NCBI GenBank assembly: GCA_047285805.1
Contig: JBJBCN010000002.1
Span: 384,001-448,000 of the forward strand
Direction: 5' to 3'
DNA length: 64,000 nt
Origin: Synechococcus sp.
Lineage (GTDB): Bacteria > Cyanobacteriota > Cyanobacteriia > PCC-6307 > Cyanobiaceae
The notes beneath the pieces were generated by a model that made no database searches, was not told where the DNA came from, and worked only from the letters and a program-made list of their open reading frames with translations. This document shows, one piece after another, positions 44,166 through 64,000 of the stretch. Positions within the stretch are counted from its first letter, which is position 1, and each line of letters opens with the position of its first letter. The position numbers and the translations under genes were made by a program.

Positions 44166-44364
44166 GAGTTAAAAGTAAATACTACCGTCTCTTTATCCGA
44201 TAAACCGAGGGGTGGTAGTACTTCTATGCGAGTTGCGAGGTAGTTTCTATCTAGTACTGTTATCTAGGACTTAGATCACAGACCTACACGAGAATATAAA
44301 GACCAATTATAGGGAGGACAACGGGTTATTGCAGTACTTGTATACTTGTAAGTGTGATAAGAGT

Positions 44365-44590: not shown

Positions 44591-45176
44591 CTGTAGCCAT
44601 CTACTACATTTAGGTTTAGGTACCAATGGTTCTCAGCCATCCCTGCAACTAAGTATTAGGGCCCCAGAAATTTGTACTGGGATTCACTGATAAGCCGCGT
44701 GCAGTATGTGAGTCGATAGCGAGGGCTGCAGTTACGAGTGGTGTTAGCGATAAGTGGATGGACTAGTGTTTTGCCTTCTCAAGAGCGGTAAGAATTTTTA
44801 TTAGGGGGAAAGTTCCTGTAATCGCTGTTAAAGTAGTTTGTGAACGTCATGTGGCTTGCGACCTTGAAATCGCGTCACGTAGCGGGCGAGCATTGATGGT
44901 TGTTGTAGGTCAACGCGACAATGAGATAGTCAGTGCTTTTTACTTTTGTAGTGACTGGGTGGTAAGGTATACGACTTTCTCAATAGAAACGAAGGATAGT
45001 GTTCATATGAACGGATTAGACTTTTCGAGAAGTATCCATATGATGGCGCCTGAGATCGGTTTCTACGGCGAAAAGTATCAATCGATTGACCATTCAGCGC
45101 TGTTCACAGGTACAGTCGTATTGAAAAAACAATTCAACATCTGAGTCCTGCGATCCTTATTATAAGTCATCCCATC

Positions 45177-45908: not shown

Positions 45909-46039
45909 GGATACAAGGGACTATATTAAGTCATGGGCATGGTCATGGAAAAAGTCAGAGATAGGAACTGCAAAACGCTTGATTAAATCTTCAGGTAAGC
46001 AATGATCCATCAATTGATACTTAATCGATCACTAAAAAG

Positions 46040-47683: not shown

Positions 47684-47841
47684 AGAAATAACATCACTAT
47701 TTTTTGCCTTATAGGAGTCATCGACATTAACGTCAATAACACAGAAAGCGAAAAAACAATATTGTAACAATATCAAGAATTGCATCACTTGTTTGATGGT
47801 CAGGCGCCGATGAGTATCTTGCAAATATTAATAAGTTGTTT

Positions 47842-49077
47842 ATGGAACCATCAAAAGGCGAAGACATCGACTCCGTATCCAAGCACAATGGAGATCTAAA
47901 CTCAAAAATGGACAAATCAGATCCGTTACGATATAGTCAAAGCGTAAATATACTCATCACACCAATAAAATACTGGTCTGGATTGGCAGTCATTACTTCT
48001 GTCGGACTTCTAGGTTGGTCTGTATTTGGAAGGATACCCGAGAAAACCACTTCTAGTGGATTTATAACAAAACCATTTTTATTGGCTTCTGTTGGCCAAT
48101 CAGCCAGTAGCGACGGAACATACTCAAGTATCTTGGTAAAGCCTGGTGACAAAGTAGTCAAGGGTCAGTTACTCGCGAATCTTGCATTCCCAGCCCTATT
48201 GCAAAAAGTTGACGAAGCTAGAACTCAACTGAAAATTGGTAAGACTCAGCATCAATCACAGTATGAGACACCTTCATTTCAAAACTATTTGAATGAGCAG
48301 AAATCATCAGTCGACTCATCTAAGAAATATCTTATTGCAGCTCAAGGCATTGCAAAAACTGGGGCTATATCTGAGACGACAGTAAGGAACGCAAAACAAA
48401 GCTATCAAAGCTCAGTGCAATCACTGCTGTCGACTCAGAGTAAAGTGATCGAGTCAAACTCGAATATAGCAAAACTTGAAACGACACTAAATGCTGCTAT
48501 TACTACGCAAAAAGAGGCTTCAAATATCTATTCACCATATACAGGCATAGTATTAAATATCTTTCGGTCAAGCGGCCAACCTAATGTTCCGGGTAAACCA
48601 TTACTTCAGCTAGAAATAAATGCTAACGGGCAACCTTCACCGCAACAAAGTGATGGTTTAGCTGTTATTTCATTTTTTACTCCAACAGCCGCTGCTAAGT
48701 TATTGGTCGGACAAGAAGTACACATACTTCCCTCAAACATTCAGGCAAATACAGTAGGTAACGTAGTTGGAAGAGTATCAGAAATATCACTCTTACCCCT
48801 TACTCAGTCAGAGGCATCTGGAATTCTCGGTTCACAAGAGTTAGCTACCGAGCTTCTTCAAGATAACAAAAACATCCAGGTCACTATCGACCTGGAAGAA
48901 GATAAACAATCTCCTTCTGGCTTCAAGTGGATCAATGGGTCAGGACCTCCATCAACTCGTCCCTCACAATTCCCAAGGGTTGGCCTACAAGCTCAGGTTT
49001 CTGTGATTACTAAACGAATTCCCCCAATCACACTTGGTGTTCCGGCGCTCAAGAAATTCTTTGGTATTAGCTCATGA
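47842..49077 (+). CDS. HlyD-family membrane fusion protein (NHLP bacteriocin secretion type)
   Basis: TM ending WSVFGRIP, ILVKPGDKVVKGQLLA, IYSPYTGIV, SGFKWINGSGP. Confidence 0.9.
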   Translation: MEPSKGEDIDSVSKHNGDLNSKMDKSDPLRYSQSVNILITPIKYWSGLAVITSVGLLGWSVFGRIPEKTTSSGFITKPFLLASVGQSASSDGTYSSILVKPGDKVVKGQLLANLAFPALLQKVDEARTQLKIGKTQHQSQYETPSFQNYLNEQKSSVDSSKKYLIAAQGIAKTGAISETTVRNAKQSYQSSVQSLLSTQSKVIESNSNIAKLETTLNAAITTQKEASNIYSPYTGIVLNIFRSSGQPNVPGKPLLQLEINANGQPSPQQSDGLAVISFFTPTAAAKLLVGQEVHILPSNIQANTVGNVVGRVSEISLLPLTQSEASGILGSQELATELLQDNKNIQVTIDLEEDKQSPSGFKWINGSGPPSTRPSQFPRVGLQAQVSVITKRIPPITLGVPALKKFFGISS

Positions 49078-51272
49078 ATTTCAAGACACCTTCAAAAATC
49101 CAGGTAGAAGCTATTGAATGTGGAGCCGTTTCATACTGGATTATTAATGGTTTCTACAATAACTGGCTCACAAGTGAAGAAGCAAGAATAGATGTGAATG
49201 TTACAAAAGATGGATCAAATGCATACAATATTGTCCAAGCACTCAAGAGAAAGGGTTTTGATTCAGATGGTTTTCAACCTACCATAGATGAACTCAAGAG
49301 TAATAATCCGGAGTGCGGTCTTCCATGTATTGCTTGGGTAAATAAAGTCCATTGGGTTGTTCTAGAGAAGTTCGATGGGACAAGTTTTTTGATCAGCGAC
49401 CCAGCTAAGGGCCATAGAAAGTCAACTCCTGCAGACTTTGAAAAGGAATACTCAGGCCTAACACTAAGCGCACGTCCTACCAATACCTTCAAACCCCAAG
49501 GCACTAAACCCAATGCGATAGTTGATCTTGTCAGCATTGTTTCTTCCAACAAGAAAGCCATTGCACTTTATGTACTACTTGGATTAGTACTCACTATCCC
49601 CGTAGTGTCCTTAAGCTCATTTATCGGATTTTTTACAGACACGATCCTTGCCGAATCTGGTGCGAGCAATAGTTACATCTGGATCCTAACATTTATAGTA
49701 GGGCTATTCTTTCTTGGAAAATTCCTAGAGCAAATCATTCTGAGAAGGCTTCATTTGTCCGTATTGGCAGCATTGATCCAGAGAACTATCACGAAACTTC
49801 TCTCTCTTCCACTCTCTTTTTACCCACTCAGAGACCTTGGCGAGATAAGTCAGCGCATTACACTTAATATTAGCCTCTCAAATATTCTTACGGGCCCCTT
49901 ATCCAAGGCCTCCGTAGGATTAGCAACGATGGCGATATATGCTGCAATAATGCTGACATATAGTCCAATTCTTGGCATCCTTGTAATACTTCTGGGCGCA
50001 ATAAACTTTTATACTCTAATTAGCCTCGCAAAATCATTAAGCCAGTTCTCACAAAAGAGTTCCATGATGACGGGAAAGATGACATCTAATATTCTATATA
50101 TGGCCAATAACTTTCAATATCTGAAAGCCAATGGACTCGAGCTACCCCTATTTCAACAATGGAGCGATAACTTTTCTCAGTCTCAAACAACAAGCGAGCA
50201 AATGTCCTATATCCAGAAACGCAATACTTCAACTACTTCATTCCTTAATCAACTCGCCGATTATTTAATAGTGATTGTCTCTGGGCTCTTCATAATGATG
50301 GGAAATATTAGCTTAGGTGAATTCATCAGTTTCAGGCTCATATCACTCGCATTCTTGAAACCGATAAATACTCTTGCTGGAGTTAATTCTAAGTTCGCAA
50401 CAGCGGTTGGTGATGTCAACCGGCTGAAAGACTTATGGGATGAGAAGGACGATACCGTAGTCAGAAATTCTTACAAGATGATTGATCAGACTTCTTTTGA
50501 ACTTGACATTAACACAGCATTAAATCTTGTAAGTAATTCAAGCATTAGCCTAGATTCTGGAGGTTTTCGATACACACCAGGTTCACCACCTGTCTTTGAA
50601 GGCATTTCGCTCAATGCACAACATGGTGATGTCATTTCTCTTACTGGGCCACCAGGATCTGGAAAGACAACGCTTTTACAATCTCTGTCCTATCTCACAG
50701 ATCTCGATTCGGGCTCGATTACATTGTCGGACTCACCTATTGGTTCATACGCTCCATCGTTGTTAAGAAGCACCTTGTCCTTCACTTCTCAAGACAAGTA
50801 TATATTTACTGCATCGGCACTGGAGAATATCAAAGTCTTCGATCCACAGATTTCTCAAAGTAATATCTTAGATACTATCGAGCTTTATGGTCTTGCTTCA
50901 ATCTTAAGCTCTCTTCCTCAAGGACTTGCCACTGAACTTGGCCCTTCAGTACAAATAAGCAATTCCGATAAGATTATCATTCACTTACTTCGAAGCCTTG
51001 TCAGAAATCCCAGAATCCTAGTCATAGACGAGCTACTGGCTGACATAGATTCGGATTTCGCTCAGTCTTTACTTATCAGGATCTCCCAGAATATTCCGAT
51101 TGTTATCTTTGTATCACTGGATCCTAATTTAATTTCAATTGCAAATCGATCTCTCGTCTTGAGTTCAAAAGGTCTGCAAGAACTACCCCCACCAGAACTT
51201 ATCACGCGGATTAAAGCGCGCCAAGAATCACAATCTAAACCCCAAACTCAGTACAAGGAGGCTTCCAAGTGA
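49074..51272 (+). CDS. C39 peptidase-containing ABC exporter (NHLP type)
   Basis: QVEAIECGA (catalytic Cys), HWVV and ISDP triad residues, TM domain, Walker A GPPGSGKT, Walker B ILVIDE. Confidence 0.92.
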   Translation: MNFKTPSKIQVEAIECGAVSYWIINGFYNNWLTSEEARIDVNVTKDGSNAYNIVQALKRKGFDSDGFQPTIDELKSNNPECGLPCIAWVNKVHWVVLEKFDGTSFLISDPAKGHRKSTPADFEKEYSGLTLSARPTNTFKPQGTKPNAIVDLVSIVSSNKKAIALYVLLGLVLTIPVVSLSSFIGFFTDTILAESGASNSYIWILTFIVGLFFLGKFLEQIILRRLHLSVLAALIQRTITKLLSLPLSFYPLRDLGEISQRITLNISLSNILTGPLSKASVGLATMAIYAAIMLTYSPILGILVILLGAINFYTLISLAKSLSQFSQKSSMMTGKMTSNILYMANNFQYLKANGLELPLFQQWSDNFSQSQTTSEQMSYIQKRNTSTTSFLNQLADYLIVIVSGLFIMMGNISLGEFISFRLISLAFLKPINTLAGVNSKFATAVGDVNRLKDLWDEKDDTVVRNSYKMIDQTSFELDINTALNLVSNSSISLDSGGFRYTPGSPPVFEGISLNAQHGDVISLTGPPGSGKTTLLQSLSYLTDLDSGSITLSDSPIGSYAPSLLRSTLSFTSQDKYIFTASALENIKVFDPQISQSNILDTIELYGLASILSSLPQGLATELGPSVQISNSDKIIIHLLRSLVRNPRILVIDELLADIDSDFAQSLLIRISQNIPIVIFVSLDPNLISIANRSLVLSSKGLQELPPPELITRIKARQESQSKPQTQYKEASK

Positions 51273-54001
51273 CAATTCAACCATCATCAATAACCTACTA
51301 TACTAGAGTTTCCTGCAACATACCAGTGCCAACATCAGATGGCACTCTAAAGTATCACCTACTTGATCTCTTGCCAGGTTCGATAGATTCGTCATTCTGG
51401 CGTCAACTCATACCCACATTAAATATCGCATTCGAGGAACTTCCAGCCCTAGATGTTGCTGCAGCTTCGCTTTCTAAATATGCATCTGACCCTGGCAATG
51501 AGTATGAAGTTACGCGAAAGATTCTTGACAACCTCTATCTTAATGTTCGTCTCTCACTTTCAAAAAGTCGTCAAGCAGACATCTCCTTTAGAGAGTCTTC
51601 AACCCTTTCAGTTGATGCACCGACACAACGAAAGATTATCTCTAATCAATCTCTCTACCTTGCGCGTATCGAATCTGAAAAGGGTCTTCAGGCGTTTTCA
51701 ATTAATGATGAAGTGGGGGCAGTCAATGCTCCAACAAGATTACTTTTGCCTTCAGGTTCAAGTGTTACCATCTTTGGACAAACAAGCTGCAATATTCTCA
51801 CGACTCTCAGTAATGATGACATTCAAACACTTGTCGATACAATCGCCCATCTCCAGCTTTTACTTGTTCAGGATATAATATCTCGATCTAGGAAGTTAGA
51901 AGCAGACGAGTCTAAGGCCTATAGCTATGCCCTTCAGGCTTTGGAAGAATATATACCTCCATCTCTTAACAAGTCTGATTCAACAGTCTTATCTACAACC
52001 AGTGACTTTGACAATGTCTTTTACTGTGCTGGTGCTGTAGTCAGAAAGGAATCTCAAGCCTCCAATCTATATACGTCCGTCTCACTTGCAGACTGCACTA
52101 CAGAATATGACGCACTTGTTAAGTTGCTAAATGTTTCGTCAGTTCCCTATCGGATATCTGATCCACCTAATGTTTTTGCCGATAACCGTACCTATCTCTT
52201 TGTCAACGAAGATGAATCAGTTACTGCTCATGTTCGAACATCTTATGGATACCGAATAATCTCGAATACTACTACTACTCAAGCTAGAGATGGAGAACCG
52301 CACCCATCTGGGCAGATTATTACCATCTATCCAATTACTCCCGATAATGGAGGCCCTTGGAGCTTTATAAAAACTGGCCTTAGAGATGCTAATGGTCCGT
52401 TGCTTTCTGTGGTCGGGATATCACTCCTCCTTTCAGCAGCGACACTTATTCCTGCTTTTCTGATTGATCAATTGACATCATTATACATTCCTTATGGTAA
52501 CTACTATTCTCTAGTTTTTTTTGGTGTATCAGCTATTGCAGTTCTTGGAATTACGTATATCATCCAACTTCTCCAAGCACGTTACTTAGTCAGATTCGAG
52601 CTTATTACTGACTCTAATCTCCAGACAATGATGGTGGATAGGTTCCTCCGAATTAAGGTCGACGAAGTCGCTTCATACTCTCCTGGAAGTCTTCAAAACC
52701 GAATAATGGGTATATCACAACTTCGATCAACGATCACCTCTAATCTGACACCAATCTTGACCGCTTATCTATCAGTCATCTTCAACTTTATATATCTATT
52801 CGTCTTTTCATGGCAATTGTCGCTCGTCGTAATGGTAGCTGGAGCTCTACTGGGAACAGCTACATTTTGTGCAGCTCAGCAAAGACTAGTTTACTTTAAG
52901 CAGCTCACTGAGCTCGATGGCAAGCTTCTTGAATATACAAATGATTCCATTAATGGTATCCAAGTTCTCAGATCAACTGGAACAACTGATGAACTCCTGT
53001 CCCGTTTTACAAAAGTTGTAAAACCCCTTATCTCAGCAATCTTTAATGCAACTCGTCTACTTAATAGAGTAGACACGCTTTCTGGCTCAACTACTTACAT
53101 ACTGTATATCTTCTTGCTTCCCTTTGCATATCACCTTTCCCATTCAGGCGATTCTGGAGGACGTGTTTTAACGATAGGTGCCACAGTAAGCTTCCTCACC
53201 TGTACCCAAACTTTCCTTTCAAGCTTCGAATCGGCAATTGATAAGTCTATCTCAAGTTTTGTACAGGTGTCTACATACTGGTCTCGTGCAATGGATATCT
53301 TACATCTGCCTGCTGAGCCAGCGCATCTTGAATCAACACCAAAGAATTTTGATGGCTCATTGTCAGCAACTAATCTTGGATTTGTTTATCCATCCAAAGG
53401 TAATATCTCAAATAGGCCGGTCTTTAGCGGGCTCAGCTTTGAATTGAAACCTGCCACTTCTAACCTTATTCTTGGATCATCAAGATCTGGCAAGACAACA
53501 TTGCTTTCTGTCCTATCAGCACTTCATGATACTTACGATGGAACTGTCACGGCTTCTGGACATGACTTAAATACTATGTCACCACGTATTTATCGGTCTT
53601 TCATTTCCAATGTCCCTCAAAACCTTGTGATGAAACAAGGCAGCCTTAAGTCAAACATTAGCTCTGGCGTTTCTGTCTCATCTGATGAGATCGGATCACT
53701 CCTCGAAACCTTTGGGCTTAGTCAGTTCGTTGATTCTTTGCCAATGAAGCTTGGTACCGTAGTTAGTCCAAAGGCTTCGTCAATACCTGTACAGTATAAG
53801 AAAAGACTATTTCTCCTGAGAGCTGCTCTTAAGCGTTCCAAATATGTCTTCATTGATGATGCACTATCTGGTCTTCCTAGTAATGACATACAAAAAGTCT
53901 TGAACTACTTCACTTCAAATGGCGCCACTGTCTTAGCAACGTCATCGAATAGCAGTCTATCTACATACTTTGATCAGACGTTTAGTCTCGACAAGTCTTA
54001 G
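51269..54001 (+). CDS. Second ABC exporter subunit (permease + ATPase) with long N-terminal domain
   Basis: TM domain, Walker A GSSRSGKT, Q-loop NVPQ, SLPMKLGT, VFIDDA; overlaps the upstream ABC gene. Confidence 0.88.
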   Translation: MTIQPSSITYYTRVSCNIPVPTSDGTLKYHLLDLLPGSIDSSFWRQLIPTLNIAFEELPALDVAAASLSKYASDPGNEYEVTRKILDNLYLNVRLSLSKSRQADISFRESSTLSVDAPTQRKIISNQSLYLARIESEKGLQAFSINDEVGAVNAPTRLLLPSGSSVTIFGQTSCNILTTLSNDDIQTLVDTIAHLQLLLVQDIISRSRKLEADESKAYSYALQALEEYIPPSLNKSDSTVLSTTSDFDNVFYCAGAVVRKESQASNLYTSVSLADCTTEYDALVKLLNVSSVPYRISDPPNVFADNRTYLFVNEDESVTAHVRTSYGYRIISNTTTTQARDGEPHPSGQIITIYPITPDNGGPWSFIKTGLRDANGPLLSVVGISLLLSAATLIPAFLIDQLTSLYIPYGNYYSLVFFGVSAIAVLGITYIIQLLQARYLVRFELITDSNLQTMMVDRFLRIKVDEVASYSPGSLQNRIMGISQLRSTITSNLTPILTAYLSVIFNFIYLFVFSWQLSLVVMVAGALLGTATFCAAQQRLVYFKQLTELDGKLLEYTNDSINGIQVLRSTGTTDELLSRFTKVVKPLISAIFNATRLLNRVDTLSGSTTYILYIFLLPFAYHLSHSGDSGGRVLTIGATVSFLTCTQTFLSSFESAIDKSISSFVQVSTYWSRAMDILHLPAEPAHLESTPKNFDGSLSATNLGFVYPSKGNISNRPVFSGLSFELKPATSNLILGSSRSGKTTLLSVLSALHDTYDGTVTASGHDLNTMSPRIYRSFISNVPQNLVMKQGSLKSNISSGVSVSSDEIGSLLETFGLSQFVDSLPMKLGTVVSPKASSIPVQYKKRLFLLRAALKRSKYVFIDDALSGLPSNDIQKVLNYFTSNGATVLATSSNSSLSTYFDQTFSLDKS

Positions 54002-55337
54002 TCCACCGATCCAATATCTCTTCAAGATCCGTTCTTGTTGGATTCATAACTTTCTTGCAACCTGATTCCCTCGCTTCTAATTTCTGAACCTCTAATGTCT
54101 GTTTTATTATCTTTCTTGTGATACTGATTCCAAGTCTTGAGATCGACTTATATAGTAGCATTGCCAATCTAATGATTGACTTCCTCTGCATGATCTCATC
54201 TATCGATGATAAAGTTCTAATTGAGTCAAGGTAGCTCGATATCGCAAAACTGTTTCCCTGCGAAGTCAACAACAAACCTTCCATTGTATCAACTATATAT
54301 TCACGTATAGCATATCTTATAAACGCGGATCGGACTAGGTAAGTCTTCTTATAAGCACCTGACAAGCTTCCCCAATCACGTCTCTGGATCAAGTCACTTA
54401 TAAACTGATTCAAGTCACTGCTAATCACAGTAATATCATTGCGGATACCCTCTGCAAGTAGCAACTGTCTATAAAGCTGTTCCTTCATTACGTCAGCATG
54501 TAGATTAGTATCCAGTATTGTGAGATCTCTAACCGACTGTGTCGACAGTGTCAGCCCATCAAGTTCAGAGTCTCTCGTATCAATATAGACATATGGAGCG
54601 AGTACAAAGTCATCTATAGCACTCTTGCCTGACCTGATACTCTCCACAGATCTATCTATCTCTGCCTGTGTGATGTATTGCGCATTTCGTTGAGGCAGTA
54701 CAAGCAACTCTGCTTCCCGGATAGTCATTTCTAGATCAATACTCTTATAGTCTATATACTCCTCCTTTAAGACCCGAACTACGTCTTTGCTAGCAGAACC
54801 AGCCACTCTATCCATATATTCTTCTATACGCTTCCAGTCTCTCTCCCCAAATGATAGTGTCGAAAGATAACTAACAAGCAAATCTAGGTGATCCTTTAAC
54901 TCTCTATCTTCTACCTTTTCTGCTAATATTCTTAAGTTGATTAATGGTATGCTCAAATGTCTGTAGCCTGCTTCGTTTAACTCATGCAGTAGTCCTACCT
55001 CGTCATCACCTGTACTAGGATTCTCAATATAGTAGCTGTATACGTCCCCAAAGCCGATCATTCCACAAGACTGCATTTCTACAGCTCGTAATGCACCCAT
55101 GCTTGAACAACCAATAACAGTGTATCCAGATTCAATAACCTCTTTTATCTCCCGATGAAGAATGGCGAATTCTTCAAAAAAGTATCCATCTACTACTACT
55201 AACACCTCTACAGAACTATTCTGCATTACATAGTTAACTAAGTCCCCTGCCTTTGCAGGTGGCTGGATGTCCCAACCACAGAAGATATCTTTACTTCCTG
55301 AAGATGGACCTACAAATACAGTTCTCTTATTGATCAT
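53982..55337 (-). CDS. TfuA-like protein 2 with C-terminal extension
   Basis: VFVGPS, PPAKAGDL, VDGYF...ILHREI, GCSSMGALRAVE, GMIGFGDVY, DDEVGLLH, SIPLINLR; ATGA overlap with the YcaO stop. Confidence 0.92.
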   Translation of the reverse strand: MINKRTVFVGPSSGSKDIFCGWDIQPPAKAGDLVNYVMQNSSVEVLVVVDGYFFEEFAILHREIKEVIESGYTVIGCSSMGALRAVEMQSCGMIGFGDVYSYYIENPSTGDDEVGLLHELNEAGYRHLSIPLINLRILAEKVEDRELKDHLDLLVSYLSTLSFGERDWKRIEEYMDRVAGSASKDVVRVLKEEYIDYKSIDLEMTIREAELLVLPQRNAQYITQAEIDRSVESIRSGKSAIDDFVLAPYVYIDTRDSELDGLTLSTQSVRDLTILDTNLHADVMKEQLYRQLLLAEGIRNDITVISSDLNQFISDLIQRRDWGSLSGAYKKTYLVRSAFIRYAIREYIVDTMEGLLLTSQGNSFAISSYLDSIRTLSSIDEIMQRKSIIRLAMLLYKSISRLGISITRKIIKQTLEVQKLEARESGCKKVMNPTRTDLEEILDRWTKTCRD

Positions 55338-56356
55338 AATGGGAAGCCTGTCAACATAGATCCTTGCCGAAGACTTGGTGACGGCCAAGCAAATACTTTG
55401 CACACATGCACCGGATCTATCGGGAACCTTGTCTGTATATCTACGTACCCGATCTGAATACCCTGCCTGTTCGCCGATTCAAGCAACTTGTTTCTCGTAT
55501 CTATACTGTACTTGTTCGACTCTATCCCTTCATGTCCTATATAGTCAATAACTTCACTCGTTCGTTCCACCGTATCTGTATACTCTTCATACTGAGCTGC
55601 GTAGAACCAGTCATCTCTCGAGGCTGCAATTCTCATCAACCACGTCTGCATTGCCTCAGCTATACAGTCAGTAATTGCTTGTTGTGGACAGTCACCAAGT
55701 CCAAATGCATTAAAGCCACCAGTGACACTTCTTTCTTTTGACTCAATTGAGCATACCGAAATAGGCCAAGCTGACTTATATACATAACACCTTAGGTCAC
55801 TCACCTTCTTCTTCATCTGAATAATCAACTCTCTATTGTGTGACGATAGATGATCTAAGCTTAACTCGTATCTCTCGGCCCTAGATATGATTACTCGTTC
55901 TACAACTTCTACCAAGCCAGATACTAACGCAAGCTCACTGTTAGTATGAGCACCAAGCCCAGTAGTACCCATTGGATACTTGTTTACCAGTCTAAGCGGA
56001 TTATTTAGCCTATACTCTACTGATTCTAATGGGAAATACTCGACAGATCCATTAAGAGCATTCTTACCAACTATACAGTTCACTTGATTAGATAATCTAT
56101 CATCTTTAATTGGCAAGCTACTCTGACGCCTGACTGTCTCATTGTCTACATTCTCTGACGCATATCTTTCAATTGCCTCAACTGCTGTTGCCAGCCACGC
56201 AGTTTCATCGGTCCATCCTTTACCGCTGTCAACAGTCAAGTGAATCGCGCTTGGCCGACATGACTGGTAGACATGAATTGGAAAGTCGTCATATCCGCTT
56301 ATACAACCAATCCTAGTAACCCCAATGTTATTCAATACAGACTCTATTTCACTCAT
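55334..56356 (-). CDS. YcaO-family protein 2
   Basis: IGVTRIG, SCRP...VDSGKG, VEAIERY, TTGLGA, EVVER, AEAMQT...IAASRDD. Confidence 0.88.
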   Translation of the reverse strand: MSEIESVLNNIGVTRIGCISGYDDFPIHVYQSCRPSAIHLTVDSGKGWTDETAWLATAVEAIERYASENVDNETVRRQSSLPIKDDRLSNQVNCIVGKNALNGSVEYFPLESVEYRLNNPLRLVNKYPMGTTGLGAHTNSELALVSGLVEVVERVIISRAERYELSLDHLSSHNRELIIQMKKKVSDLRCYVYKSAWPISVCSIESKERSVTGGFNAFGLGDCPQQAITDCIAEAMQTWLMRIAASRDDWFYAAQYEEYTDTVERTSEVIDYIGHEGIESNKYSIDTRNKLLESANRQGIQIGYVDIQTRFPIDPVHVCKVFAWPSPSLRQGSMLTGFPL

Positions 56357-57725
56357 TGTAAAATCCTTTCAGAAGTGCCGAGATCGACTGATAGCATCTC
56401 TCTTCATCAAGCAGGGTTATAATCTGTCCGAACTCATAGCCTCTTCTATCTCGGATGCACTCGTCCAGTATTACACTTAGGAGTACATACCATCTATCCT
56501 TATAACCACATGACTTTAACCATCCACTGTCAAAACTAGCCATATCAGCGCTGGGATTCACCAATCGATATCTGCTTCTCCAAGCAAGATATACGAGGGG
56601 GTCGTCACTCTTGGTCGATCTATCCAATACTGGGATCGTTATATCTTGTCTTTGGCCCAAATACATTCTTATAATATTCTCATAGCTCACCTCTGCCCCT
56701 CTACCTATAAGTCTAAATTCTGGCCCCGACTCGATCTGACAATTGTATCTCCGGATAATACCTTCGCAATAACTTGCCCGTAAGATATCATTATCTATAT
56801 TGCAATTCCCGAACACCTTAATCTTATCTGCTAGTTGACTTATGTTGATATAAGCTCCTCTTTTCTCGTCCCAGCCTGTTTCCACAATACACTCCTCTTC
56901 GACATATTCTGGCAAGCCGTTCCACCTATTTACTATGGGCATACACCCATTGAGTGCACACTCGATAACGACCTTTCCTTGCGTCTCTTCCGTCGTCGTA
57001 GAAAGTACTATGCAAAGTGAACTCTCTCTAAATAACAAGTCCCTCTGTCCTGTATCTGAATCAAATATCCATTCTATACATACATTTTGATCATTAGCCA
57101 CTTGCTTTAGTTGATTCAAATAATGATAGCTCTTCTCCGATTGATCAGAAAAGAGACATATAGCCATCGTTGGTTTCTTACGTAGAAGCCCGACAGCTCT
57201 GATGGAGTCTACAATATTCTTCGTATATTCAAGTCTTGATACAACTACTATTCGATTCTTTCTCGCTTCGATGTGCGCACTTTTCAAGGAGGATATACGT
57301 ACTGGCTTAACGATGCCCCTCACTCTTGCACCTACTGGTAGGAAGTTCTCTACAAGATCCTTAGAAAAGACCGTGTTAAATACTAATGTATCTCCAGAAC
57401 TCATGAGTAGCACTACAGACCTTATGTATTTCAAGCGACTAACTATAGTATTAATATAGTAGTGCAGGGTTATATCCTTCCGAGCTCTGTTCCTCCACTC
57501 CATTAAATCATCCCAATACTCGCATACAAACATTGATGGCCATATCTCAATATCGTTAAAATGGGACAGGTAGCTTTCCAGGCTACCTATCTCTTCCTTG
57601 CAACTAAAACTATATACTAATACGTTAATCCCTTCCCTTGACCTGTCAGACACGAAATAGTCATTGAACACCTTGGCTGTTGCATTCTCGTTCTCTGACC
57701 CGTGAACTAACCGTACTATAACCAT
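56349..57725 (-). CDS. GT4-like (GT-B fold) glycosyltransferase
   Basis: VVVSRLEYTKNI and EETQGKVVIECALNGCMPIVNRWNGLPEYV (E-x7-E signature). Confidence 0.8.
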   Translation of the reverse strand: MVIVRLVHGSENENATAKVFNDYFVSDRSREGINVLVYSFSCKEEIGSLESYLSHFNDIEIWPSMFVCEYWDDLMEWRNRARKDITLHYYINTIVSRLKYIRSVVLLMSSGDTLVFNTVFSKDLVENFLPVGARVRGIVKPVRISSLKSAHIEARKNRIVVVSRLEYTKNIVDSIRAVGLLRKKPTMAICLFSDQSEKSYHYLNQLKQVANDQNVCIEWIFDSDTGQRDLLFRESSLCIVLSTTTEETQGKVVIECALNGCMPIVNRWNGLPEYVEEECIVETGWDEKRGAYINISQLADKIKVFGNCNIDNDILRASYCEGIIRRYNCQIESGPEFRLIGRGAEVSYENIIRMYLGQRQDITIPVLDRSTKSDDPLVYLAWRSRYRLVNPSADMASFDSGWLKSCGYKDRWYVLLSVILDECIRDRRGYEFGQIITLLDEERCYQSISALLKGFYNE

Positions 57726-59287
57726 CTACTTCTCTCCATACAAATATACATTATGGCTAACTGCCACATATCATGGAAGTACAATCCAAGCACATCATCT
57801 GTATTGCCTATCCAGAATAGATTCTTATTAAGTAGTGATCTCACATCCTTTACAGCTCTAAGGGCTTCCCCCTCTTCCAACGAATCAATATATAGTAAGT
57901 GTGGCCTCAACTGCTGTTCTTGACGCAAGAAAGTATTCCACTCTCTTACCCATTCTTCATATCTCTTACAGGCTAGAAGTTCCTCAAACAGTCTATTCCT
58001 ACCATAGCTATGGAATAGTACGTTTCCAGCCAGAAACTCTAGCAATATAAACAACCTCTCCTCATTCTCTATGTCTATAGACTCACCTCTGCATACACAG
58101 TCAACTATATGCTTCTCGTACCTACCCTTGAAGACCTGGCTACATATCCGCTCATCTCTCACATCTAATACACAATCTAACCACTCAACGGCAGAACTAG
58201 TAAACGATATTGCATCTTCTTTGCTTATCGTGGCTCCAGACGAGTTCGATCCACATTGAACTACTTTGTACCTTCTTATTGAATCATAAAGCCATTCCGA
58301 TTCTATTCTGTCTGTAAATGACCGTACTTCAATTGGAGGCTGTCTTTCGGCTCTAAGTATTTTACTCACGGCATCCTGCCTACAGAACATTGAGGTAACT
58401 TCACATTCTTCACTGCTTGTCTGACCTTTTAGCCTCGCCATGTCATCCACTAGGCTCCTCGTCCAAGTCTTTATGTATAATTCATGAACAATAGCGGGTG
58501 AACGTAAAAAGCAAAATATCATAAAATTGGAGATCGTATTAGCATGATCTGAACTCTCCGATATATTCACGACACGCGAATCTTTACTTAGCTGCCTTGG
58601 AATATATGGAGTCCATGCAACACTAATGTTGGAAACTGTATTACTTTTCCCCAACTCGCCTAGCCTATAAAGCGTTAAGAGGCTCTCTAGATCATTTCGT
58701 TTCTGGGACTGAAAACGATCTACGCATCTATTACTAGCCTCTTTCCCAATTAATGCTTCCATATCTTTCTTTATCTTACCCCATGTTCTTTGCTCAAAAT
58801 AACACAACTTCTCTCTTTCTATAAGGATACTCTTGATTTCACGATCTATCATGCCAACATCTTCCAAATGGTTAAGCCAGAAATATATCTCTACAAATGC
58901 CACCGTTGTTGGTTTCCAGCCTTCATCCTCTCCCATATGCAATAGCGCGACGTCGGAATCGTCACGTATACCATTCTTAAAATATTCATATATCTTGCCG
59001 TAGCCCTTCATTCCAAAACAATCTAGTTCTGAGGCTCTTAGTGCACCAAGGGAGGAGACCCCATAAATATTCTTGCCAGCCTCCAGAGTTAATAAAAACT
59101 CTTTGTGCCACGGTGCAGGTATTGTCTTGTATAACCCGTCTGCAACAATTATGTTCTCAATATCTTTATCTGTGAGATCTTCGAATAAATCAGACTGCTT
59201 GCATGGGCCTTTTAATGTTATTCCTTCAACTAGTGATTCTTTGATTCCATAAAGGCTTGGACCAGCGTATAAGACTGTATTTGACAT
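57716..59287 (-). CDS. TfuA-like protein 1 with C-terminal extension
   Basis: LYAGPSL, GPCKQSDL, ADGLY...PWHKE, GVSSLGALRASEL, GMKGYGKIY, DDSDVALLH, SQKRND. Confidence 0.92.
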   Translation of the reverse strand: MSNTVLYAGPSLYGIKESLVEGITLKGPCKQSDLFEDLTDKDIENIIVADGLYKTIPAPWHKEFLLTLEAGKNIYGVSSLGALRASELDCFGMKGYGKIYEYFKNGIRDDSDVALLHMGEDEGWKPTTVAFVEIYFWLNHLEDVGMIDREIKSILIEREKLCYFEQRTWGKIKKDMEALIGKEASNRCVDRFQSQKRNDLESLLTLYRLGELGKSNTVSNISVAWTPYIPRQLSKDSRVVNISESSDHANTISNFMIFCFLRSPAIVHELYIKTWTRSLVDDMARLKGQTSSEECEVTSMFCRQDAVSKILRAERQPPIEVRSFTDRIESEWLYDSIRRYKVVQCGSNSSGATISKEDAISFTSSAVEWLDCVLDVRDERICSQVFKGRYEKHIVDCVCRGESIDIENEERLFILLEFLAGNVLFHSYGRNRLFEELLACKRYEEWVREWNTFLRQEQQLRPHLLYIDSLEEGEALRAVKDVRSLLNKNLFWIGNTDDVLGLYFHDMWQLAIMYICMERSRWL

Positions 59288-60468
59288 TATCCAGCTGCCG
59301 GTGAATGTATCTCTCTTGAGATCAAGTTAGCACTTTCAAGATTAAGTCCACCAAGTCGACTCAGATTTCTATATCCATTGTAATTATACCCATGAAGCCC
59401 TTCAACAAGTACCCTTACAACGTGAATCATCTCGTCAGCTTGATCATACGTGTGTATATAAATGCTCTCTCCATGTTCACGCACTACTTCATCCACGATC
59501 TGTTCTAATGATGGATTATCTCCTAGTGTCCCCTTCCTTAAATCGACCCCATCCCCTACTCTCTTCCCAATCTTGTCCTTAGGAAATGTAGTCAGATATA
59601 GATCCTTGTTCATATCTTCTCTAGATCCCGAAATTGATATTACTCTTGCTTGGTGAGCTTCTGTTATTGCCCTGGTTGCTGCAATTACTCCGTTTGTATA
59701 AGTACCATATCCACACCATGCTTGCATGCCATCCGATATGAGGCACTTATAAGTCGGAAATGCTTCCCAAATAGTGTTATCGTACAAACCAACGACTATA
59801 TTGCTATCTACTGACAACTTATCTCCCAATACCTTCAGTTCTCCTTCTTTCAGCACTGCGCTATCAACTTCTATATCTGTCGATCGCCCATTCTGTTCAT
59901 TCAACGTTATACAATGTCTTTCTATTACCTCGTGTATACCTGATCTGCATGCATCATCCCAGCTTATCCCCGACGCTAGTCCATTTGATGACAAATAAAA
60001 GCATCCTCTTTTTCTCGGATTTGTCATCCTTCTAAAATCCAGGCTTACGCTGTCAAACGGTATGTAAACTTCTTCCTTTGTGATCATGTCAATCGCCGTT
60101 GACCATTTTTCCTTGCTATTTCTTGTATAATCGATCATTGTTATAGCCAAACGATCTACCGAGCATATTCGACCTTCTAACTCACTCTCTTTACATTCTA
60201 TAGTCCAATCTGCTTCTTCTGCGATATGGCATTCAAAGCTTTCCATTAATGCAGATATATTTGCTTGCAGCTGAGTAACACCTTTGCCTCCACTCTGCGA
60301 CAACACTTTTGAATTTGGCCTGTAGGCTATTGATACACCTAATTCTTCTTTTACAAACCCACTAATACTTGCCAACCGTGATACAGAAAACTTACTCTTG
60401 ATCGTATTTAGATACGTGAGCAAACTCTCTGATGCAGTCTTGTTTTCCTTAATTCTGGTTTCAATCAC
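59287..60468 (-). CDS. YcaO-family protein 1
   Basis: VSRLA, YRPNS...SQSGGKG, ALMESFE, SSNGLASG, HEVIERH, RAITEAHQAR...ISGSRED. Confidence 0.92.
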   Translation of the reverse strand: MIETRIKENKTASESLLTYLNTIKSKFSVSRLASISGFVKEELGVSIAYRPNSKVLSQSGGKGVTQLQANISALMESFECHIAEEADWTIECKESELEGRICSVDRLAITMIDYTRNSKEKWSTAIDMITKEEVYIPFDSVSLDFRRMTNPRKRGCFYLSSNGLASGISWDDACRSGIHEVIERHCITLNEQNGRSTDIEVDSAVLKEGELKVLGDKLSVDSNIVVGLYDNTIWEAFPTYKCLISDGMQAWCGYGTYTNGVIAATRAITEAHQARVISISGSREDMNKDLYLTTFPKDKIGKRVGDGVDLRKGTLGDNPSLEQIVDEVVREHGESIYIHTYDQADEMIHVVRVLVEGLHGYNYNGYRNLSRLGGLNLESANLISREIHSPAAG

Positions 60469-60472
60469 GCTT

Positions 60473-60516
60473 AAAAAAAAAAGCTGACGATCGCTCGCAA
60501 TGGCGATTGTCAGCTT
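60473..60516 (-). terminator. Intrinsic terminator/attenuator between precursor and ycaO
   Basis: Minus strand AAGCTGACAATCGC-loop-GCGATCGTCAGCTT running into a 10-T tract. Confidence 0.85.
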
Positions 60517-60540
60517 ATCTTATCTTGTTTGAACTACAGG

Positions 60541-60750
60541 TTATGCGCCAGCAGCACCAGCTGCAACACCAACTCCTGCCCATTCGACAGTGCTCCCACC
60601 AGCGGCCTTTTGAAGGTCTACACCGCGCGTCTTGACAGCCTCAGCCATGTGCTCCTTTTGGAATTTGCTCCCAATCTGACCCATGAGCTCCGGCGTAGGA
60701 CCACTCTTCTTGAGTTCATCCAGAAAAGCATGAGCGTTTTCGACTGACAT
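60541..60750 (-). CDS. RiPP precursor: Nif11-like leader, double-glycine site, 17-aa core STVEWAGVGVAAGAAGA
   Basis: MSVENAHAFL resembles Nif11-type leader starts; DLQKAAGG matches the (E/D)L-x-x-(V/A)-x-GG C39 cleavage consensus; directly upstream of ycaO. Confidence 0.88.
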   Translation of the reverse strand: MSVENAHAFLDELKKSGPTPELMGQIGSKFQKEHMAEAVKTRGVDLQKAAGGSTVEWAGVGVAAGAAGA

Positions 60751-60820
60751 GATTTACATGCGGGTACCTTGTAAGGCTAGCCATGGCCTTGATGGATGCC
60801 AACTCGCATGTAACGAAAGG

Positions 60821-61483
60821 CTAATCTTTGCTAGACCCCCATACTGCTGAGGTGCATTCTTTGATACCAAGCTTCTTTCTCACCGCTTCAGTCTTAAGCG
60901 ATAGATCATCTTCTAAATGTCTTAAGCCACAGTATTGACTTGCTTCAAGCCCTTTGGACAACCCATCAATCATTGCTTTTATATGTTGCATGCTTTCCTT
61001 TGTCGGCTCCTTTAAATGACTTGCAATCACTTTAAATAATATAATTGCTGATAGGGTCGTCATTGATTGACCTGCGTAGAAAGCCTGAAGCGCAGTTTCA
61101 CCAAACGGTGTCGTATTGTAGCCAGTAAGCACATGTAGGATGTCGTGCGTATGTCGTAATCTTGTCCTTACATATTCTTGCCGGCTCATTTGAGAGTTCA
61201 CTGGAAACCTTATCATTCCAGGAATACTATGTATAAACTCTTGCTCTTCAGACATTCTCATCAGATGCATTCCGAGATCTTTCCCTAATGTTCCCTCCTC
61301 CATGAATATCAGGTCATCGAGACTGTACTCAGAAGGTCTCCACCTTTCCATAGCATCATCTGCAATAAATGAGTGCAGATGAACGACCTTCCACTGATTC
61401 GAGGCCGCTAATTCCTCCGCTTCAACCCTGATCTCACCAAGTTGGACATCTCTTTTAAACAGATCACCTATTTGTAGTGCCAT
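60821..61483 (-). CDS. Coq4-family protein
   Basis: EGTLG and RLRHTHDILHVLTGY...GETALQAF (HDxxH...E metal motif). Confidence 0.85.
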   Translation of the reverse strand: MALQIGDLFKRDVQLGEIRVEAEELAASNQWKVVHLHSFIADDAMERWRPSEYSLDDLIFMEEGTLGKDLGMHLMRMSEEQEFIHSIPGMIRFPVNSQMSRQEYVRTRLRHTHDILHVLTGYNTTPFGETALQAFYAGQSMTTLSAIILFKVIASHLKEPTKESMQHIKAMIDGLSKGLEASQYCGLRHLEDDLSLKTEAVRKKLGIKECTSAVWGSSKD

Positions 61484-61530
61484 TCATAGTCTCATTTCTT
61501 ACACTATACACACTATGTCGCCAGTCTTAA

Positions 61531-62334
61531 ATGTCTTCATCATTTGATGTTTATCGTTTTTTTGATCGTCACCCATCGTTTGACTGCATCCTTCCTCTTT
61601 CTTCGTCTAGCTACTTAGTCCGTTCTGGCTCTACATTCTATTCTTGTCATCATTTCGTCACCTTTCATTCGCTTCACAGTCTTTATAGCCTTTACCTTCA
61701 TTTTCTTACCCTCTCTCAATCTACTTTTATCTCCCTGCCCCCATTGTCTGAGATCTTCCAGCTTCCTGATAACAGTTGTTTGCTCATAACTGAGTTTATT
61801 TCTGGTCGTAGACCCTCCTTTTCTGAGCTCTCGTTTCTTCTGCCAGAAATGGTTTCATTTGGTTTAACGGCTACATCTTCCTCTCCACCTTCTGATCACC
61901 TTATTCCTAAAACCCCTAACTCCTTTGAGCTTTTGCGAGCTCAAATACAAGCTTCTCCTTGCTTTCACTCCCTACCCGCTTGTCTTTCACGCTTTCTCTT
62001 GCTTGACCCTCCTCATGGTTCCCTTTCTTTTTGCCATGGAGATTTTTTGCCTCAGAATCTTGTCATTGATCGTCATGACAATGTTTTTCTAATTGATTGG
62101 GAGTTGACAGGTCTCTCCATCCAGCAGTTTGACCTTGGCTGGCTCAATGCTTATTGCATTCTCTCTAGCCTCTCGCTCCCATTTGCTGAATCATCATATC
62201 CCCACGCACTTGATTATTTCACCAGATTTGGGCTGGTTCGATTTGCTTATCGAATCCTCCAGCAGTCGCTTCCTCAAAAGATGACTAGTGAGCGGATGCT
62301 CACTATCATCTCTCTTTTTAATAGATCTATCTGA
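61531..62334 (+). CDS. Aminoglycoside-phosphotransferase (APH)/choline-kinase-like protein
   Basis: LITEFISG, CHGDFLPQNL, LIDWE, FDLG motifs. Confidence 0.82.
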   Translation: MSSSFDVYRFFDRHPSFDCILPLSSSSYLVRSGSTFYSCHHFVTFHSLHSLYSLYLHFLTLSQSTFISLPPLSEIFQLPDNSCLLITEFISGRRPSFSELSFLLPEMVSFGLTATSSSPPSDHLIPKTPNSFELLRAQIQASPCFHSLPACLSRFLLLDPPHGSLSFCHGDFLPQNLVIDRHDNVFLIDWELTGLSIQQFDLGWLNAYCILSSLSLPFAESSYPHALDYFTRFGLVRFAYRILQQSLPQKMTSERMLTIISLFNRSI

Positions 62335-63133
62335 CGGCTATCTCCTTTTATCTTCCTGCCTTGTATTACCTGTGGAATCTGTTGGGACAAACTTTGTTTC
62401 TTGACCTTAACCTCAAGTGTAGCTTCTTTGCCCTTGCCTGCCTTTTTCTTGCTTACTCTTGGGCATCGCTTTGATGTCCTTTTCTTATTACGTACTCCCA
62501 CTTTTTGTTATTTGTCTCTCTCCGGTTCTGCGTATTTCATCATGCGCGGGTGTCGTCCATTAATCATAGACTCTCTCCTTATTCCTGTTTCACTCTCTTT
62601 ACTCTTTGCTATTTCTATTTCATACAACCTCTCTAATTCACTATGCACTCTAGCGCTTTCAGTGCTGATCTTTTGTGCGTCTTCTCTGTCGCTCACCTTT
62701 CGCTCCTGAGAGTTGTTTCTTTGCATAGCTTTTACGCTGCTGTTGCATTGTTGTTTAATTCCGCCCACTTAATGACGCCTTGCTCGTCATAGAATGTCTC
62801 TTGCAGTACTCCTGGGATGAGTCTATCCTTATCATTGCACATATCTATTGTAACTCCCTCTGTCTTTGTTCACTGACCCGAGACACCATAATATACAAGT
62901 CGGTCGCTAGTTGCTCTTGCGGCACTAACTAACCTGCTCTTTTGATCTGCTCTCGCTTCCTAGTCTTGCCTACACTTTCGTCGAGTGGAATCTGTATTGT
63001 TGCCCAGCCACTTTGGCCCCGGATCACAACTTCCCCCTGCTATCACGCTATTCTCCTCTCAGTCTTCCAGTGCAATTATAAAAACTCGTCGGACAGGGCT
63101 GACAAACCTTTGTCCCTTGCCTTGTTGAAGTGC

Positions 63134-64000
63134 TTACTCCATCGCAAGTCGCTCGAGCTTTCCCTTTAGGTAGCGAATGAACGATTGATGATCTAGCGGC
63201 CGACCGCTTACCCGCTCCACTAATTCCATAGCGTTGACACTGCGACCCAGCGGATAGACCCGTTCACCGAGCCATTGGCCTAGCGCTGCGTCTTTCCTGG
63301 AATCGAGCAGTGTTTCGATAGGGCCGATTTGAGCTTCTACCGTTTCGCTGATTTGTGCGCTTATCAGGTGGCCTAGCCCATATGAGGGGAAATAGCCAAA
63401 CATTCCCTCGCTCCAGTGCACGTCCTGGAGGCAGCCCTCTCGGTCCGTTTTTGGTTGGATGCCTAGGAGTTCTCTCATGCTCTGATTCCAGGCGCTGGGC
63501 AGCTCCTCAACCGGTAGTTCTCCCTCGATCAGCTGTAGCTCTAATTCGTAACGCAGTAGTACGTGTAGGCAGTAGCTGACCTCATCTGCCTCGACGCGTG
63601 TCAACCCTGGTTCGATTCGGTTGAGGTCCCGCCAGAAGGCTCTCGGGCTTCCCCAATAATCTCTGCCTAGGGCACTAGCGAAGCGGGGATGCCAGCGTTT
63701 GGCGATGGCTTCGCTTCGGGCTAATCGGTTCTCGTAGAAGAGGCTCTGACTTTCGTGAATAGCCATTGAGGTCGCTTCACCTAAGGGCCATGGGAACCAG
63801 TGCTCACCGGAGCGCGGTAGACCCTGCTCGTAGAGGCTGTGCCCCCATTCATGGGCGGTGGCCAGGAAAGCGGAAAATGGCTTACCGGTCACCACACGGG
63901 TGGTGATCCTGAAATCGTCCGGTCCGAGTGTGCTTGAGAACGGATGGGGTGAACGAGCTCGGTGGCATCGCTGTTTGCTGTACCCCCACTCCTGCAGCAA
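63134..64000 (-). CDS. M32 carboxypeptidase (Taq family), 3' part; start outside window
   Basis: HPF, DFRITTR, HEWGH..YEQG, HESQS, RVEADE, GCLQDVHWS, GYFPSY. Confidence 0.95.
   Translation of the reverse strand: MLQEWGYSKQRCHRARSPHPFSSTLGPDDFRITTRVVTGKPFSAFLATAHEWGHSLYEQGLPRSGEHWFPWPLGEATSMAIHESQSLFYENRLARSEAIAKRWHPRFASALGRDYWGSPRAFWRDLNRIEPGLTRVEADEVSYCLHVLLRYELELQLIEGELPVEELPSAWNQSMRELLGIQPKTDREGCLQDVHWSEGMFGYFPSYGLGHLISAQISETVEAQIGPIETLLDSRKDAALGQWLGERVYPLGRSVNAMELVERVSGRPLDHQSFIRYLKGKLERLAME

Follow-up and report, generated by a model that had tools for sequence, protein, structure and literature searches.

A candidate thioamidated-peptide precursor with a compact Nif11-like leader in a low-GC island of Synechococcus

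Does a short open reading frame (ORF) in a low-GC island of Synechococcus sp. encode the substrate of a peptide-modifying gene cluster, and if so, what would the cluster make of it? We addressed this question in a 64,000-nt window (meaning here the whole stretch of DNA analyzed, positions 384,001 to 448,000 of contig JBJBCN010000002.1, assembly GCA_047285805.1), where the ORF occupies 60541..60750 (-), with its stop codon at 60541-60543 (-). A preliminary description made from the letters alone had proposed a peptide precursor with a GG-ending leader and a Cys-free core, and the translation agrees: the 69-aa product comprises a 52-aa leader (60595..60750 (-)) carrying an L(-7), A(-4), G(-2)G(-1) cleavage motif, and a 17-aa core (60544..60594 (-)) in which 13 of 17 residues are Gly, Ala or Val and none is Cys. 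The core has a Ser/Thr head, Trp5, Gly9 (W+4, counting from the Trp) and a Gly/Ala/Val tail, with a grand average of hydropathy (GRAVY) of -0.34 over residues 1-5 and +1.47 over residues 6-17. Based on the analyses below, we conclude that the gene is a genuine precursor gene, whose peptide would be modified and secreted, with sulfur probably built into the backbone.

We found the precursor to be one member of a family. Searching with the single precursor sequence returned three relatives, and a family profile returned 228 at E<=0.01. We additionally used an alignment of 35 sequences of YcaO1, encoded by the first gene downstream of the precursor, to retrieve 19 metagenome loci, 15 of which carry a family precursor next to ycaO1 (one of them broken). 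The four loci without a precursor comprise L014, with a transposase fragment at the expected site, two whose contigs end early, and L024, which has none within 4 kb (here and below, L, G and P numbers denote the loci, genomes and proteins compared, G000 being the genome of the window). The fragment in L014, upstream of ycaO1 at L014:8790-9505, is of the Mutator family. By crude counting of synonymous (pS) and non-synonymous (pN) differences, the window and L018 precursors gave pS 0.78 and pN 0.21 in the leader and pS 0.75 and pN 0.22 in the core, and the leaders of L013 and L017 gave pS 0.72 and pN 0.10; diverged precursor pairs are under purifying selection. The leader is also constrained in the lineage of G098, where three of four pairs gave leader pS of 0.15-0.20 and pN of 0.008-0.025, with core pN about equal to or above pS. 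Because there are 228 relatives, because pN is far below pS in diverged pairs and because the gene adjoins ycaO1 in 15/19 metagenome loci, we judge the ORF to be more than a chance frame, and hold it highly probable that it is the true substrate of the island's pathway for peptides that are made on the ribosome and modified after translation (RiPPs).

What do the family members share? Family statistics were taken from the best 120 of the 228 relatives, 119 of which could be parsed into leader and core, with leader lengths of 52 aa (14 members), 56 aa (104) and 66 aa (1). These 119 members carry 110 distinct cores with a median length of 21 aa. A Trp, a feature absent from the preliminary description, is present in 115/119 cores, a frequency biased upward in that the parsed members are the top scorers; three more distant representatives (P0242, P0246 and P0249) have no core Trp. 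Ser or Thr occurs within the first four core positions in 116/119 members, and the last five core residues are all Ala, Gly, Ser or Thr in 98/119. In an alignment of 114 cores on the Trp, position W-3 was most often Thr (75 cores) and position W+4 most often Gly (73 cores), corresponding to Thr2 and Gly9 of the window core. Cys appears in 18/119 cores, and the closest genome relative, G098, has Cys3; the proposed absence of Cys stands for the window core and fails as a family rule.

The family is sparsely represented in sequenced genomes: we found it in 2 of 45 genomes within the genus, in 1 of 285 from a second genus of this family, streamlined and low in GC, and only in G000 among 401 phylum-wide genomes. 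A third, weak match within the genus (G168) was rejected as spurious, being the start of an unrelated 512-aa ORF. The window genome has no precursor paralog by tblastn and is matched once by the family profile, as expected from the single precursor previously noted. The contrast that had been drawn with multi-precursor prochlorosin systems does not extend to the family as a whole, given its 110 distinct cores and the multiple copies in two relatives: L028 has four intact family ORFs, one of them fused to a 2-oxoglutarate (2OG)-Fe(II) oxygenase, and one frameshifted copy, and the two precursors of G877 (67% complete, with no YcaO1 match) lie on separate contigs, neither of them near a YcaO gene. 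The L028 fusion (L028:7875-8729 (-)) is a 284-aa ORF that joins the oxygenase domain in frame to a leader of the family and to a core-like repeat present in duplicate; stand-alone 2OG oxygenase-like genes adjoin the kinase gene in L017-L019 and L031. We found no description of the family in the literature searched, most subscription papers lying outside that search. It is a large, variable family of planktonic picocyanobacteria, known mostly from metagenomic data.

The leader had been described as Nif11-like, a claim that direct hidden Markov model (HMM) comparison did not bear out but full-length intermediates did. The precursor falls below the Nif11 cut-offs (PF07862, 15.8 vs. 23.8 bits; TIGR03798, 13.6 vs. 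32.3 bits), and 12 of 20 family members match PF07862 at E<=1 (best E 8e-4). A profile of 20 members searched against 1.84 billion representative proteins gave 23 matches, including several spurious repeat proteins and four proteins of 89-92 aa (E 4e-6 to 6e-4), all of which pass TIGR03798 at 54-69 bits. These four align end to end with the precursor apart from two gaps, one of ~13 aa that follows the first helix and one of ~7 aa within the acidic stretch preceding the GG, and their cores share an S/N-T-x-x-W-small-residue pattern with the family, a likeness partly selected for because the search profile included the core. Because these intermediates pass TIGR03798 and align with two gaps, we read the leader as a Nif11 leader miniaturized by two internal deletions, the first of which would lie roughly at helix 2 of the four-helix Nif11 leader fold described for PDB 9ZN4. 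The cleavage motif is conserved at G(-2) in 120/120, L(-7) in 119/120 and A(-4) in 112/120 members, the parsing pattern itself having required a similar GG-site motif. Elsewhere in the genome we detected 11 other PF07862 matches above cut-off and one below, and inspection of the 11 revealed none with a GG leader plus core. Other Nif11-domain ORFs lie in low-GC patches of the genome (G000:C2:1261015 (+), C2:781679 (+), C3:128051 (+) and C2:1130267 (-)), two having internal stops and one having two Nif11 domains. A plasmid search with the full-length relative P0260 gave three Nif11 matches, to the leader part only; ESM Atlas matches to the precursor were all below 0.8, one being a Nif11 cluster, and the precursor had no match in a phage collection.

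The precursor gene was also said to be more GC-rich than its surroundings, and it is: its GC of 0.543 is the highest of any 210-nt stretch of the island (mean 0.413, sd 0.028). Without the stop codon, the observed GC of 0.551 compares with 0.514 +/- 0.019 expected from simulations using the protein and island codon usage (P=0.037), with third-position GC (GC3) in the leader of 0.56 vs. 0.41 expected (P=0.016) and a low GC3 of 0.24 in the core. Precursor GC exceeds ycaO1 GC in 13/13 loci with both genes, and GC3 is higher in 11/13. The raised GC comes largely from Gly/Ala/Val content, perhaps with some codon bias, and we rejected it as a mark of separate origin, since it is mostly a matter of amino-acid content and recurs in 13/13 loci. 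Between precursor and ycaO1 lies a terminator-like hairpin with U-tract (60473..60516 (-); -20.4 kcal/mol, z -4.0, 0/200 shuffles), and hairpins of differing sequence followed by a T-rich run lie 3' of the precursor in 10/10 loci examined, the shuffle control covering the window locus. Such a hairpin would fit a precursor transcript in excess over the enzyme transcripts. By eye we saw no clear Shine-Dalgarno sequence at the precursor, the number of matches in a sigma-70 scan stayed within chance (4 vs. 2.2 +/- 1.4), and the window contains no tRNA.

Which chemistry might act on the core? Pfam and NCBIfam scans of 14 ORFs around the precursor revealed five same-strand genes downstream of it, in an operon headed by the precursor and in the order YcaO1 (59287..60468 (-)), TfuA1 (57716..59287 (-)), a family 4 glycosyltransferase (GT4; Glycos_transf_1; 56349..57725 (-)), YcaO2 (55334..56356 (-)) and TfuA2 (53982..55403 (-); likely start near 55340), with ycaO directly upstream of tfuA in both pairs. 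Among solved structures, the YcaO1 clade is closest to thioamidating MJ1094 (6PE3; E 4e-33, 118 bits), with MusD, TruD and LynD at 50-74 bits, and YcaO1 agrees with MJ1094 at all motifs. TfuA is described as a hallmark of thioamidation clusters (PMC7136475; PMC8153245; PMC6511847), and a PxP C-terminus is described as marking azoline-forming YcaOs (PMC7136475); YcaO1 and YcaO2 both lack PxP ends, YcaO1 having instead a clade-specific C-terminal HxPAA(G/I) motif. With its TfuA partners and its closeness to MJ1094, thioamidation, as the preliminary description had supposed, is the most likely YcaO reaction. The lanthionine, thiazole and aminovinylcysteine (AviCys) chemistries that it had set aside are excluded for the window core, which has no Cys; the genome gave no LanC-like (PF05147) and no HopA1 (PF17914) match. 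Among the 14 ORFs scanned we likewise found no match to E1/ThiF, SagB, LanC, HopA1, decarboxylase or RiPP recognition element (RRE)-type models.

The TfuA proteins combine a conserved domain with unusual extensions. Residues 2-215 of TfuA1 superpose on 6XP8 (Z 24.1, rmsd 2.6, 209 aligned), and the SxGALRA motif, whose Ser we take to be the catalytic residue, is invariant in 11/11 TfuA1 sequences and in 7/7 rows of the TfuA2 alignment, two rows being unrelated TfuAs. Beyond its TfuA domain (~1-215), TfuA1 carries a ~300-aa helical C-terminal extension, which, because no RRE-type match was found among the scanned ORFs, we propose as a weak candidate for a leader-binding module. A model of TfuA1 240-523 in complex with the precursor scored 0.39 vs. 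0.00 for the best control, a weak pass (contact agreement between runs >=28%, partner pLDDT >=65) of a mark reached by 116/157 solved complexes and 2/215 mismatches, of which 18/157 and both mismatches lie at <=0.60. TfuA1 284-379 and TfuA2 231-452 are predicted with pLDDT (predicted local distance difference test) below 50, and fold searches matched the TfuA domain. The extension of TfuA2 is unlike that of TfuA1 and the two do not align to each other; ESM Atlas gave no usable match for the TfuA1 extension, and a SurA-like appearance of the TfuA extension by eye was not confirmed by Pfam.

YcaO2 is divergent, being ~18% identical to YcaO1 by profile alignment. It keeps the acidic motifs, with GKG, ExxER and RDD-type motifs in place, and these invariant motifs argue for a function, though not necessarily for the reaction of YcaO1. 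TfuA2 lies beside YcaO2 in the window and in five of six metagenome loci with YcaO2, the sixth (L019) ending at YcaO2. Of the seven metagenome loci whose length allows a judgment, six have YcaO2; it is absent from L015 and G098. In a quick maximum-likelihood tree of YcaOs (42 rows, branch support by SH-aLRT only, long YcaO2 branches), YcaO1 (SH-aLRT 99) and YcaO2 (100) separate and each splits into clades A and B. The two-pair layout looks ancestral on this tree, since the sequences of either YcaO fall into a single clade and the two clades divide alike; G098 and L015, which have one pair, lie within clade A, and cores of this one-pair lineage end in bulky residues, with no Ala/Gly run and with Cys3 in two of four.

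The two clades also differ in their tailoring genes. Clade A, with 52-aa leaders, comprises 13 loci (11 from metagenomes in addition to the window and G098; several are near-identical, and five were placed by likeness rather than by the tree), with an APH-family kinase in 9, a Coq4-like gene in 10 and GT4 in 7, and neither ThiS nor a sulfotransferase in any. Clade B, with 56-aa leaders and locus GC of 25-46%, comprises 8 loci, with ThiS in 5 (upstream of ycaO1), a sulfotransferase in 2, and no kinase, GT4 or Coq4-like gene; the two with a sulfotransferase are the only two that reach well beyond TfuA2. In the window, the Coq4-like gene (60821..61483 (-)) lies directly upstream of the precursor and encodes a cluster-specific subfamily with an intact HDxxH..E metal motif, and the divergent APH-family phosphotransferase (61531..62334 (+)), with intact HGD..N and DWE motifs, lies beyond it. 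The Coq4-like gene adjoins the kinase gene in 9/9 kinase loci. One of the two G877 precursors adjoins a cluster-type Coq4-like gene, scoring 210 bits against the cluster subfamily vs. <=92 for other Coq4-like genes; the precursor at this locus (L040) is of clade-B type, and no kinase lies nearby. More generally, 165/401 genomes of this cyanobacterial family have Coq4-like genes, often in several copies.

From the gene, its family, the selection on it, the gene order and the enzyme identities, we infer each of the following chemical steps and functions. The compact Nif11-type leader would recruit the modifying enzymes, possibly via the C-terminal extension of TfuA1, as the weak complex model suggests. 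The YcaO/TfuA pairs would then phosphorylate backbone carbonyls with ATP and insert sulfide that TfuA frees from thiocarboxylated ThiS, a sulfide route stated in PMC13063428 and PMC8153245, giving one or more thioamides. ThiS would be supplied in trans in this genome, which has three ThiS genes and one ThiF-family gene (C3:84070-84768) elsewhere, the ThiS at C2:837971-838243 being 44% identical to the cluster-encoded ThiS of L028. The conserved W-x-x-x-G segment would most likely lie near the site of action of YcaO1/TfuA1, with YcaO2/TfuA2 working on the Ala/Gly tail. The APH kinase and/or GT4 would probably decorate the Ser1/Thr2 hydroxyls, where the sister clade would use a sulfotransferase, and the peptidase-containing ABC transporter (PCAT) would cut after GG and export the 17-mer, of 1473.6 Da when unmodified, through HlyD/TolC. 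The product would be a linear head-and-tail amphiphile, most likely an antagonistic or signaling peptide at membranes. Taken whole, a thioamidated, head-decorated, exported linear 17-mer is our best explanation, and one we favor by a little. Of its parts, at least one thioamide in the product is likely, and an O-decorated head has slightly the better case; because kinase/GT4 and sulfotransferase alternate by clade while Ser/Thr stays in 116/119 members, the polar, decorated N-terminus of the preliminary description is plausible. Its thioamide-rich tail, with three or more thioamides, is more tentative, and we would not count on it.

Several observations weigh against this explanation. Many loci end early, related loci are not independent, and the tailoring-gene swap and the loss of pair 2 count as one event each. 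The near-identical precursors of L018, L019 and L031 differ by non-synonymous changes only (0 synonymous, in small counts). All seven YcaO2 sequences lack the RAxTE arginine and have Trp at the R275 position, where YcaO1 (R266 and R275) and MJ1094 conserve both arginines, and YcaO2 may thus perform other chemistry or none. Proteins of the APH and GT4 families can have small molecules or sugars as their substrates, too. Finally, leader position -12 is Thr in the window precursor and Ser, Asn or Thr in 72, 35 and 5 of 120 members, in place of the Leu expected from the L(X)4L motif, which is described for Nif11 leaders and C39 recognition (bioRxiv 10.64898/2026.10.04.756588).

How do other explanations fare? 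Thioamidation might be confined to the first pair, with YcaO1/TfuA1 making one or a few thioamides near the Trp/Gly, YcaO2 forming an amidine or macroamidine or serving as a non-catalytic partner, and the tail not being thioamide-rich. This would suit the long-branch YcaO2 clade with its low identity to YcaO1 and two lost arginines, the lack of pair 2 in G098 and L015, and the single thioamide reported for thiovarsolins (PMC6511847); YcaO2 nevertheless keeps a TfuA2 of its own with the SxGALRA motif, suggesting a sulfide-dependent reaction, and we think this reading unlikely. Concerning the head, thioamitides are described as using an APH kinase for Ser/Thr dehydration and as starting with Ser1 (PMC8153245). 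A kinase-led dehydration of Ser1/Thr2 (to dehydroalanine or dehydrobutyrine, giving a pyruvyl-type N-terminus once the leader is off, as in thioamitides) could rely here on an unrecognized lyase such as the Coq4-like protein, whose closest solved relatives are annotated only as putative ubiquinone proteins and whose gene adjoins every kinase gene; alternatively, kinase, GT4 and Coq4-like protein could have self-protection or carrier roles, leaving the head without polar decoration. We regard these options as distinctly unlikely given that the genome has no HopA1-family lyase, that 96% of HopA1 genes are reported to adjoin a phosphotransferase (PMC8153245), that the Coq4-like gene of L040 has no kinase nearby, and that the sister-clade sulfotransferase points to a retained anionic group.

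A more radical departure would have the YcaOs act as stand-alone cyclodehydratases that form (methyl)oxazolines at Ser1/Thr2, with no thioamide at all. Ser or Thr is indeed near-universal at the head, and azoline-type YcaO clusters are reported in Synechococcus (PMC10783134); set against the TfuA partners and ThiS linkage, the scanned ORFs' lack of an E1/ThiF partner and of a SagB oxidase, the missing PxP C-terminus and a closest solved structure that is a thioamidating YcaO, this seems very improbable. Equally remote, in our judgment, is the reading that the frame arose by chance or has decayed, or that it encodes a class II bacteriocin-like peptide which stays unmodified and shares only the exporter. 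Sub-threshold Pfam and NCBIfam scores, the lack of a clear Shine-Dalgarno and the orphan copies of G877 would be in keeping with it; the number of relatives (228), a pN far lower than pS in diverged pairs, the ycaO1-adjacent position in 15/19 loci and the conserved downstream hairpin speak against it.

We compared our preferred reading, a thioamidated and head-decorated linear peptide, with known systems. The cluster is a variant of the Nif11/TfuA-YcaO type listed by Malit et al. 2021 (PMC8120280). Clusters there resemble it in their Nif11-type GG precursors, adjacent ycaO-tfuA genes, NHLP-type exporters, ThiS in some and common glycosyltransferases, and differ in host (Nostocales, Oscillatoriophycideae and Gloeobacteria rather than Synechococcus) and leader length (~70 aa vs. 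52-56 aa here). In the part of the supplement compared, no layout has two YcaO/TfuA pairs that are both complete, and none has an APH kinase or a Coq4-like gene; the supplement text does not mention Synechococcus, Cyanobium or Prochlorococcus, although Table_1.XLSX and the figure logos could hold such a cluster. Like thioamitides such as thioviridamide and thiostreptamide S4 (PMC8153245), the cluster has YcaO plus TfuA, an APH-type phosphotransferase, Ser1 and a small-residue run; unlike them as described there, it has no C-terminal Cys, decarboxylase, HopA1 lyase or AviCys, and it adds a Nif11/GG leader with PCAT export, two pairs, GT4 and the conserved Trp.

With prochlorosins and synechococsins (PMC10783134), the family shares a picocyanobacterial host type, a Nif11-derived GG leader, an island location, C39/HlyD/TolC export, conserved leaders with variable cores, and multiple, scattered precursors in some genomes. 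Many precursors per genome is a prochlorosin trait, and the counts here are one in the window genome, several in L028 and two in G877. Unlike prochlorosins, the family lacks LanM/LanC and has mostly Cys-free cores, a fixed core pattern around the Trp and TfuA-type YcaOs; the Synechococcus YcaO clusters of PMC10783134 are of azoline type, and TfuA is never mentioned in that text. Thiovarsolins (PMC6511847) are similar in being linear peptides thioamidated by a YcaO/TfuA pair with no Cys chemistry, and are described as tripeptides from a repeating core in Streptomyces, with one pair and no Nif11 leader or PCAT. Linear azol(in)e-containing peptides (LAPs), including thiazole/oxazole-modified microcins (TOMMs) on NHLP/Nif11 leaders, differ in that no E1/ThiF or SagB occurs among the 14 ORFs and no YcaO ends in PxP. 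By gene content, the cluster is thus neither thioamitide nor prochlorosin nor LAP, and we found no description of a thioamidated peptide from picocyanobacteria in the literature searched.

The cluster sits in a ~19-kb low-GC island (44144..63146; boundaries by comparison with G098) between a pyrophosphatase region and an M32 peptidase gene, with GC of ~41-42% vs. ~61-62% for the 2.37-Mb host genome. The G098 cluster (L007) shares this chromosomal neighborhood, yet is inverted there and located across the M32 peptidase gene, on its opposite side, which suggests independent insertion at a hot spot or rearrangement. Convergent to the precursor operon are three export genes, whose best matches are to nitrile hydratase leader peptide (NHLP)-type export models, all below cut-off: an HlyD adaptor (47836..49077 (+); TIGR03794, 147 bits vs. 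cut-off 156.2), the PCAT (49074..51272 (+)) and a second ABC transporter subunit (51269..54001 (+); best match TIGR03797). The C39 domain of the PCAT (residues ~1-140; PF03412, 80 bits) has Gln10, Cys16, His93 and Asp109, the last three of which we take to be catalytic. A TolC-like outer membrane efflux protein (46040..47824 (-)) lies beyond. Two ORFs at the left edge of the island, of 97 aa (44851-45144 (+)) and 243 aa (45177-45908 (+), hydrophobic), have no Pfam match, and the latter has no homolog in related loci. Near the window start we noted by eye a serine recombinase-like ORF (1132-2739 (-)) and a tyrosine integrase-like ORF (4109-5524 (+)).

Scans of genome contigs with the single YcaO1 sequence gave no match, and with the YcaO1 alignment one distant actinobacterial locus; TfuA matches in G021, G248 and G345 were set aside as belonging to other YcaO lineages. 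One of these loci, L011 (G248:C1:1850500-1870499, at 809-18832), is a different Nif11 plus TfuA/YcaO cluster in the same family, with two near-identical 99-aa Nif11 precursors (cores Cys-free and Thr/Ala/Gly-rich) and genes for a ThiF-rhodanese, a ThiS-like protein, two radical SAM proteins, an FAD-binding protein, a sulfotransferase and an NHLP-type exporter. Another, L012 (G345:C12, at 1801-12285), has an unrelated YcaO/TfuA pair between 263-aa and 1923-aa ORFs whose N-terminal stretches resemble each other; we saw no short precursor there.

What would such a system mean for picocyanobacteria? A bolder proposal, which we offer as speculative and on balance doubtful, is that it is the thioamide counterpart of the prochlorosins: a second diversity-generating system with hundreds of Trp-anchored cores on a miniaturized Nif11 leader, two YcaO/TfuA pairs dividing labor (pair 1 at W-x-x-x-G, pair 2 at the Ala/Gly tail), an exchangeable head (phosphate and/or sugar vs. 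sulfate), TfuA extensions as a new leader-binding module and the Coq4-like metalloprotein as a new tailoring enzyme or carrier. The interest of the locus rests more on the family and its enzyme set than on the window core alone. The precursor escapes standard Nif11 HMMs, so that mining tools would miss it, and the compact cluster, with one substrate here and natural one- and two-pair variants, makes the roles of the second YcaO/TfuA pair and of the Coq4-like protein testable. Prochlorosins are the best-known variable peptide family of picocyanobacteria, and a second family would provide a handle on why streamlined cells keep libraries of modified peptides.

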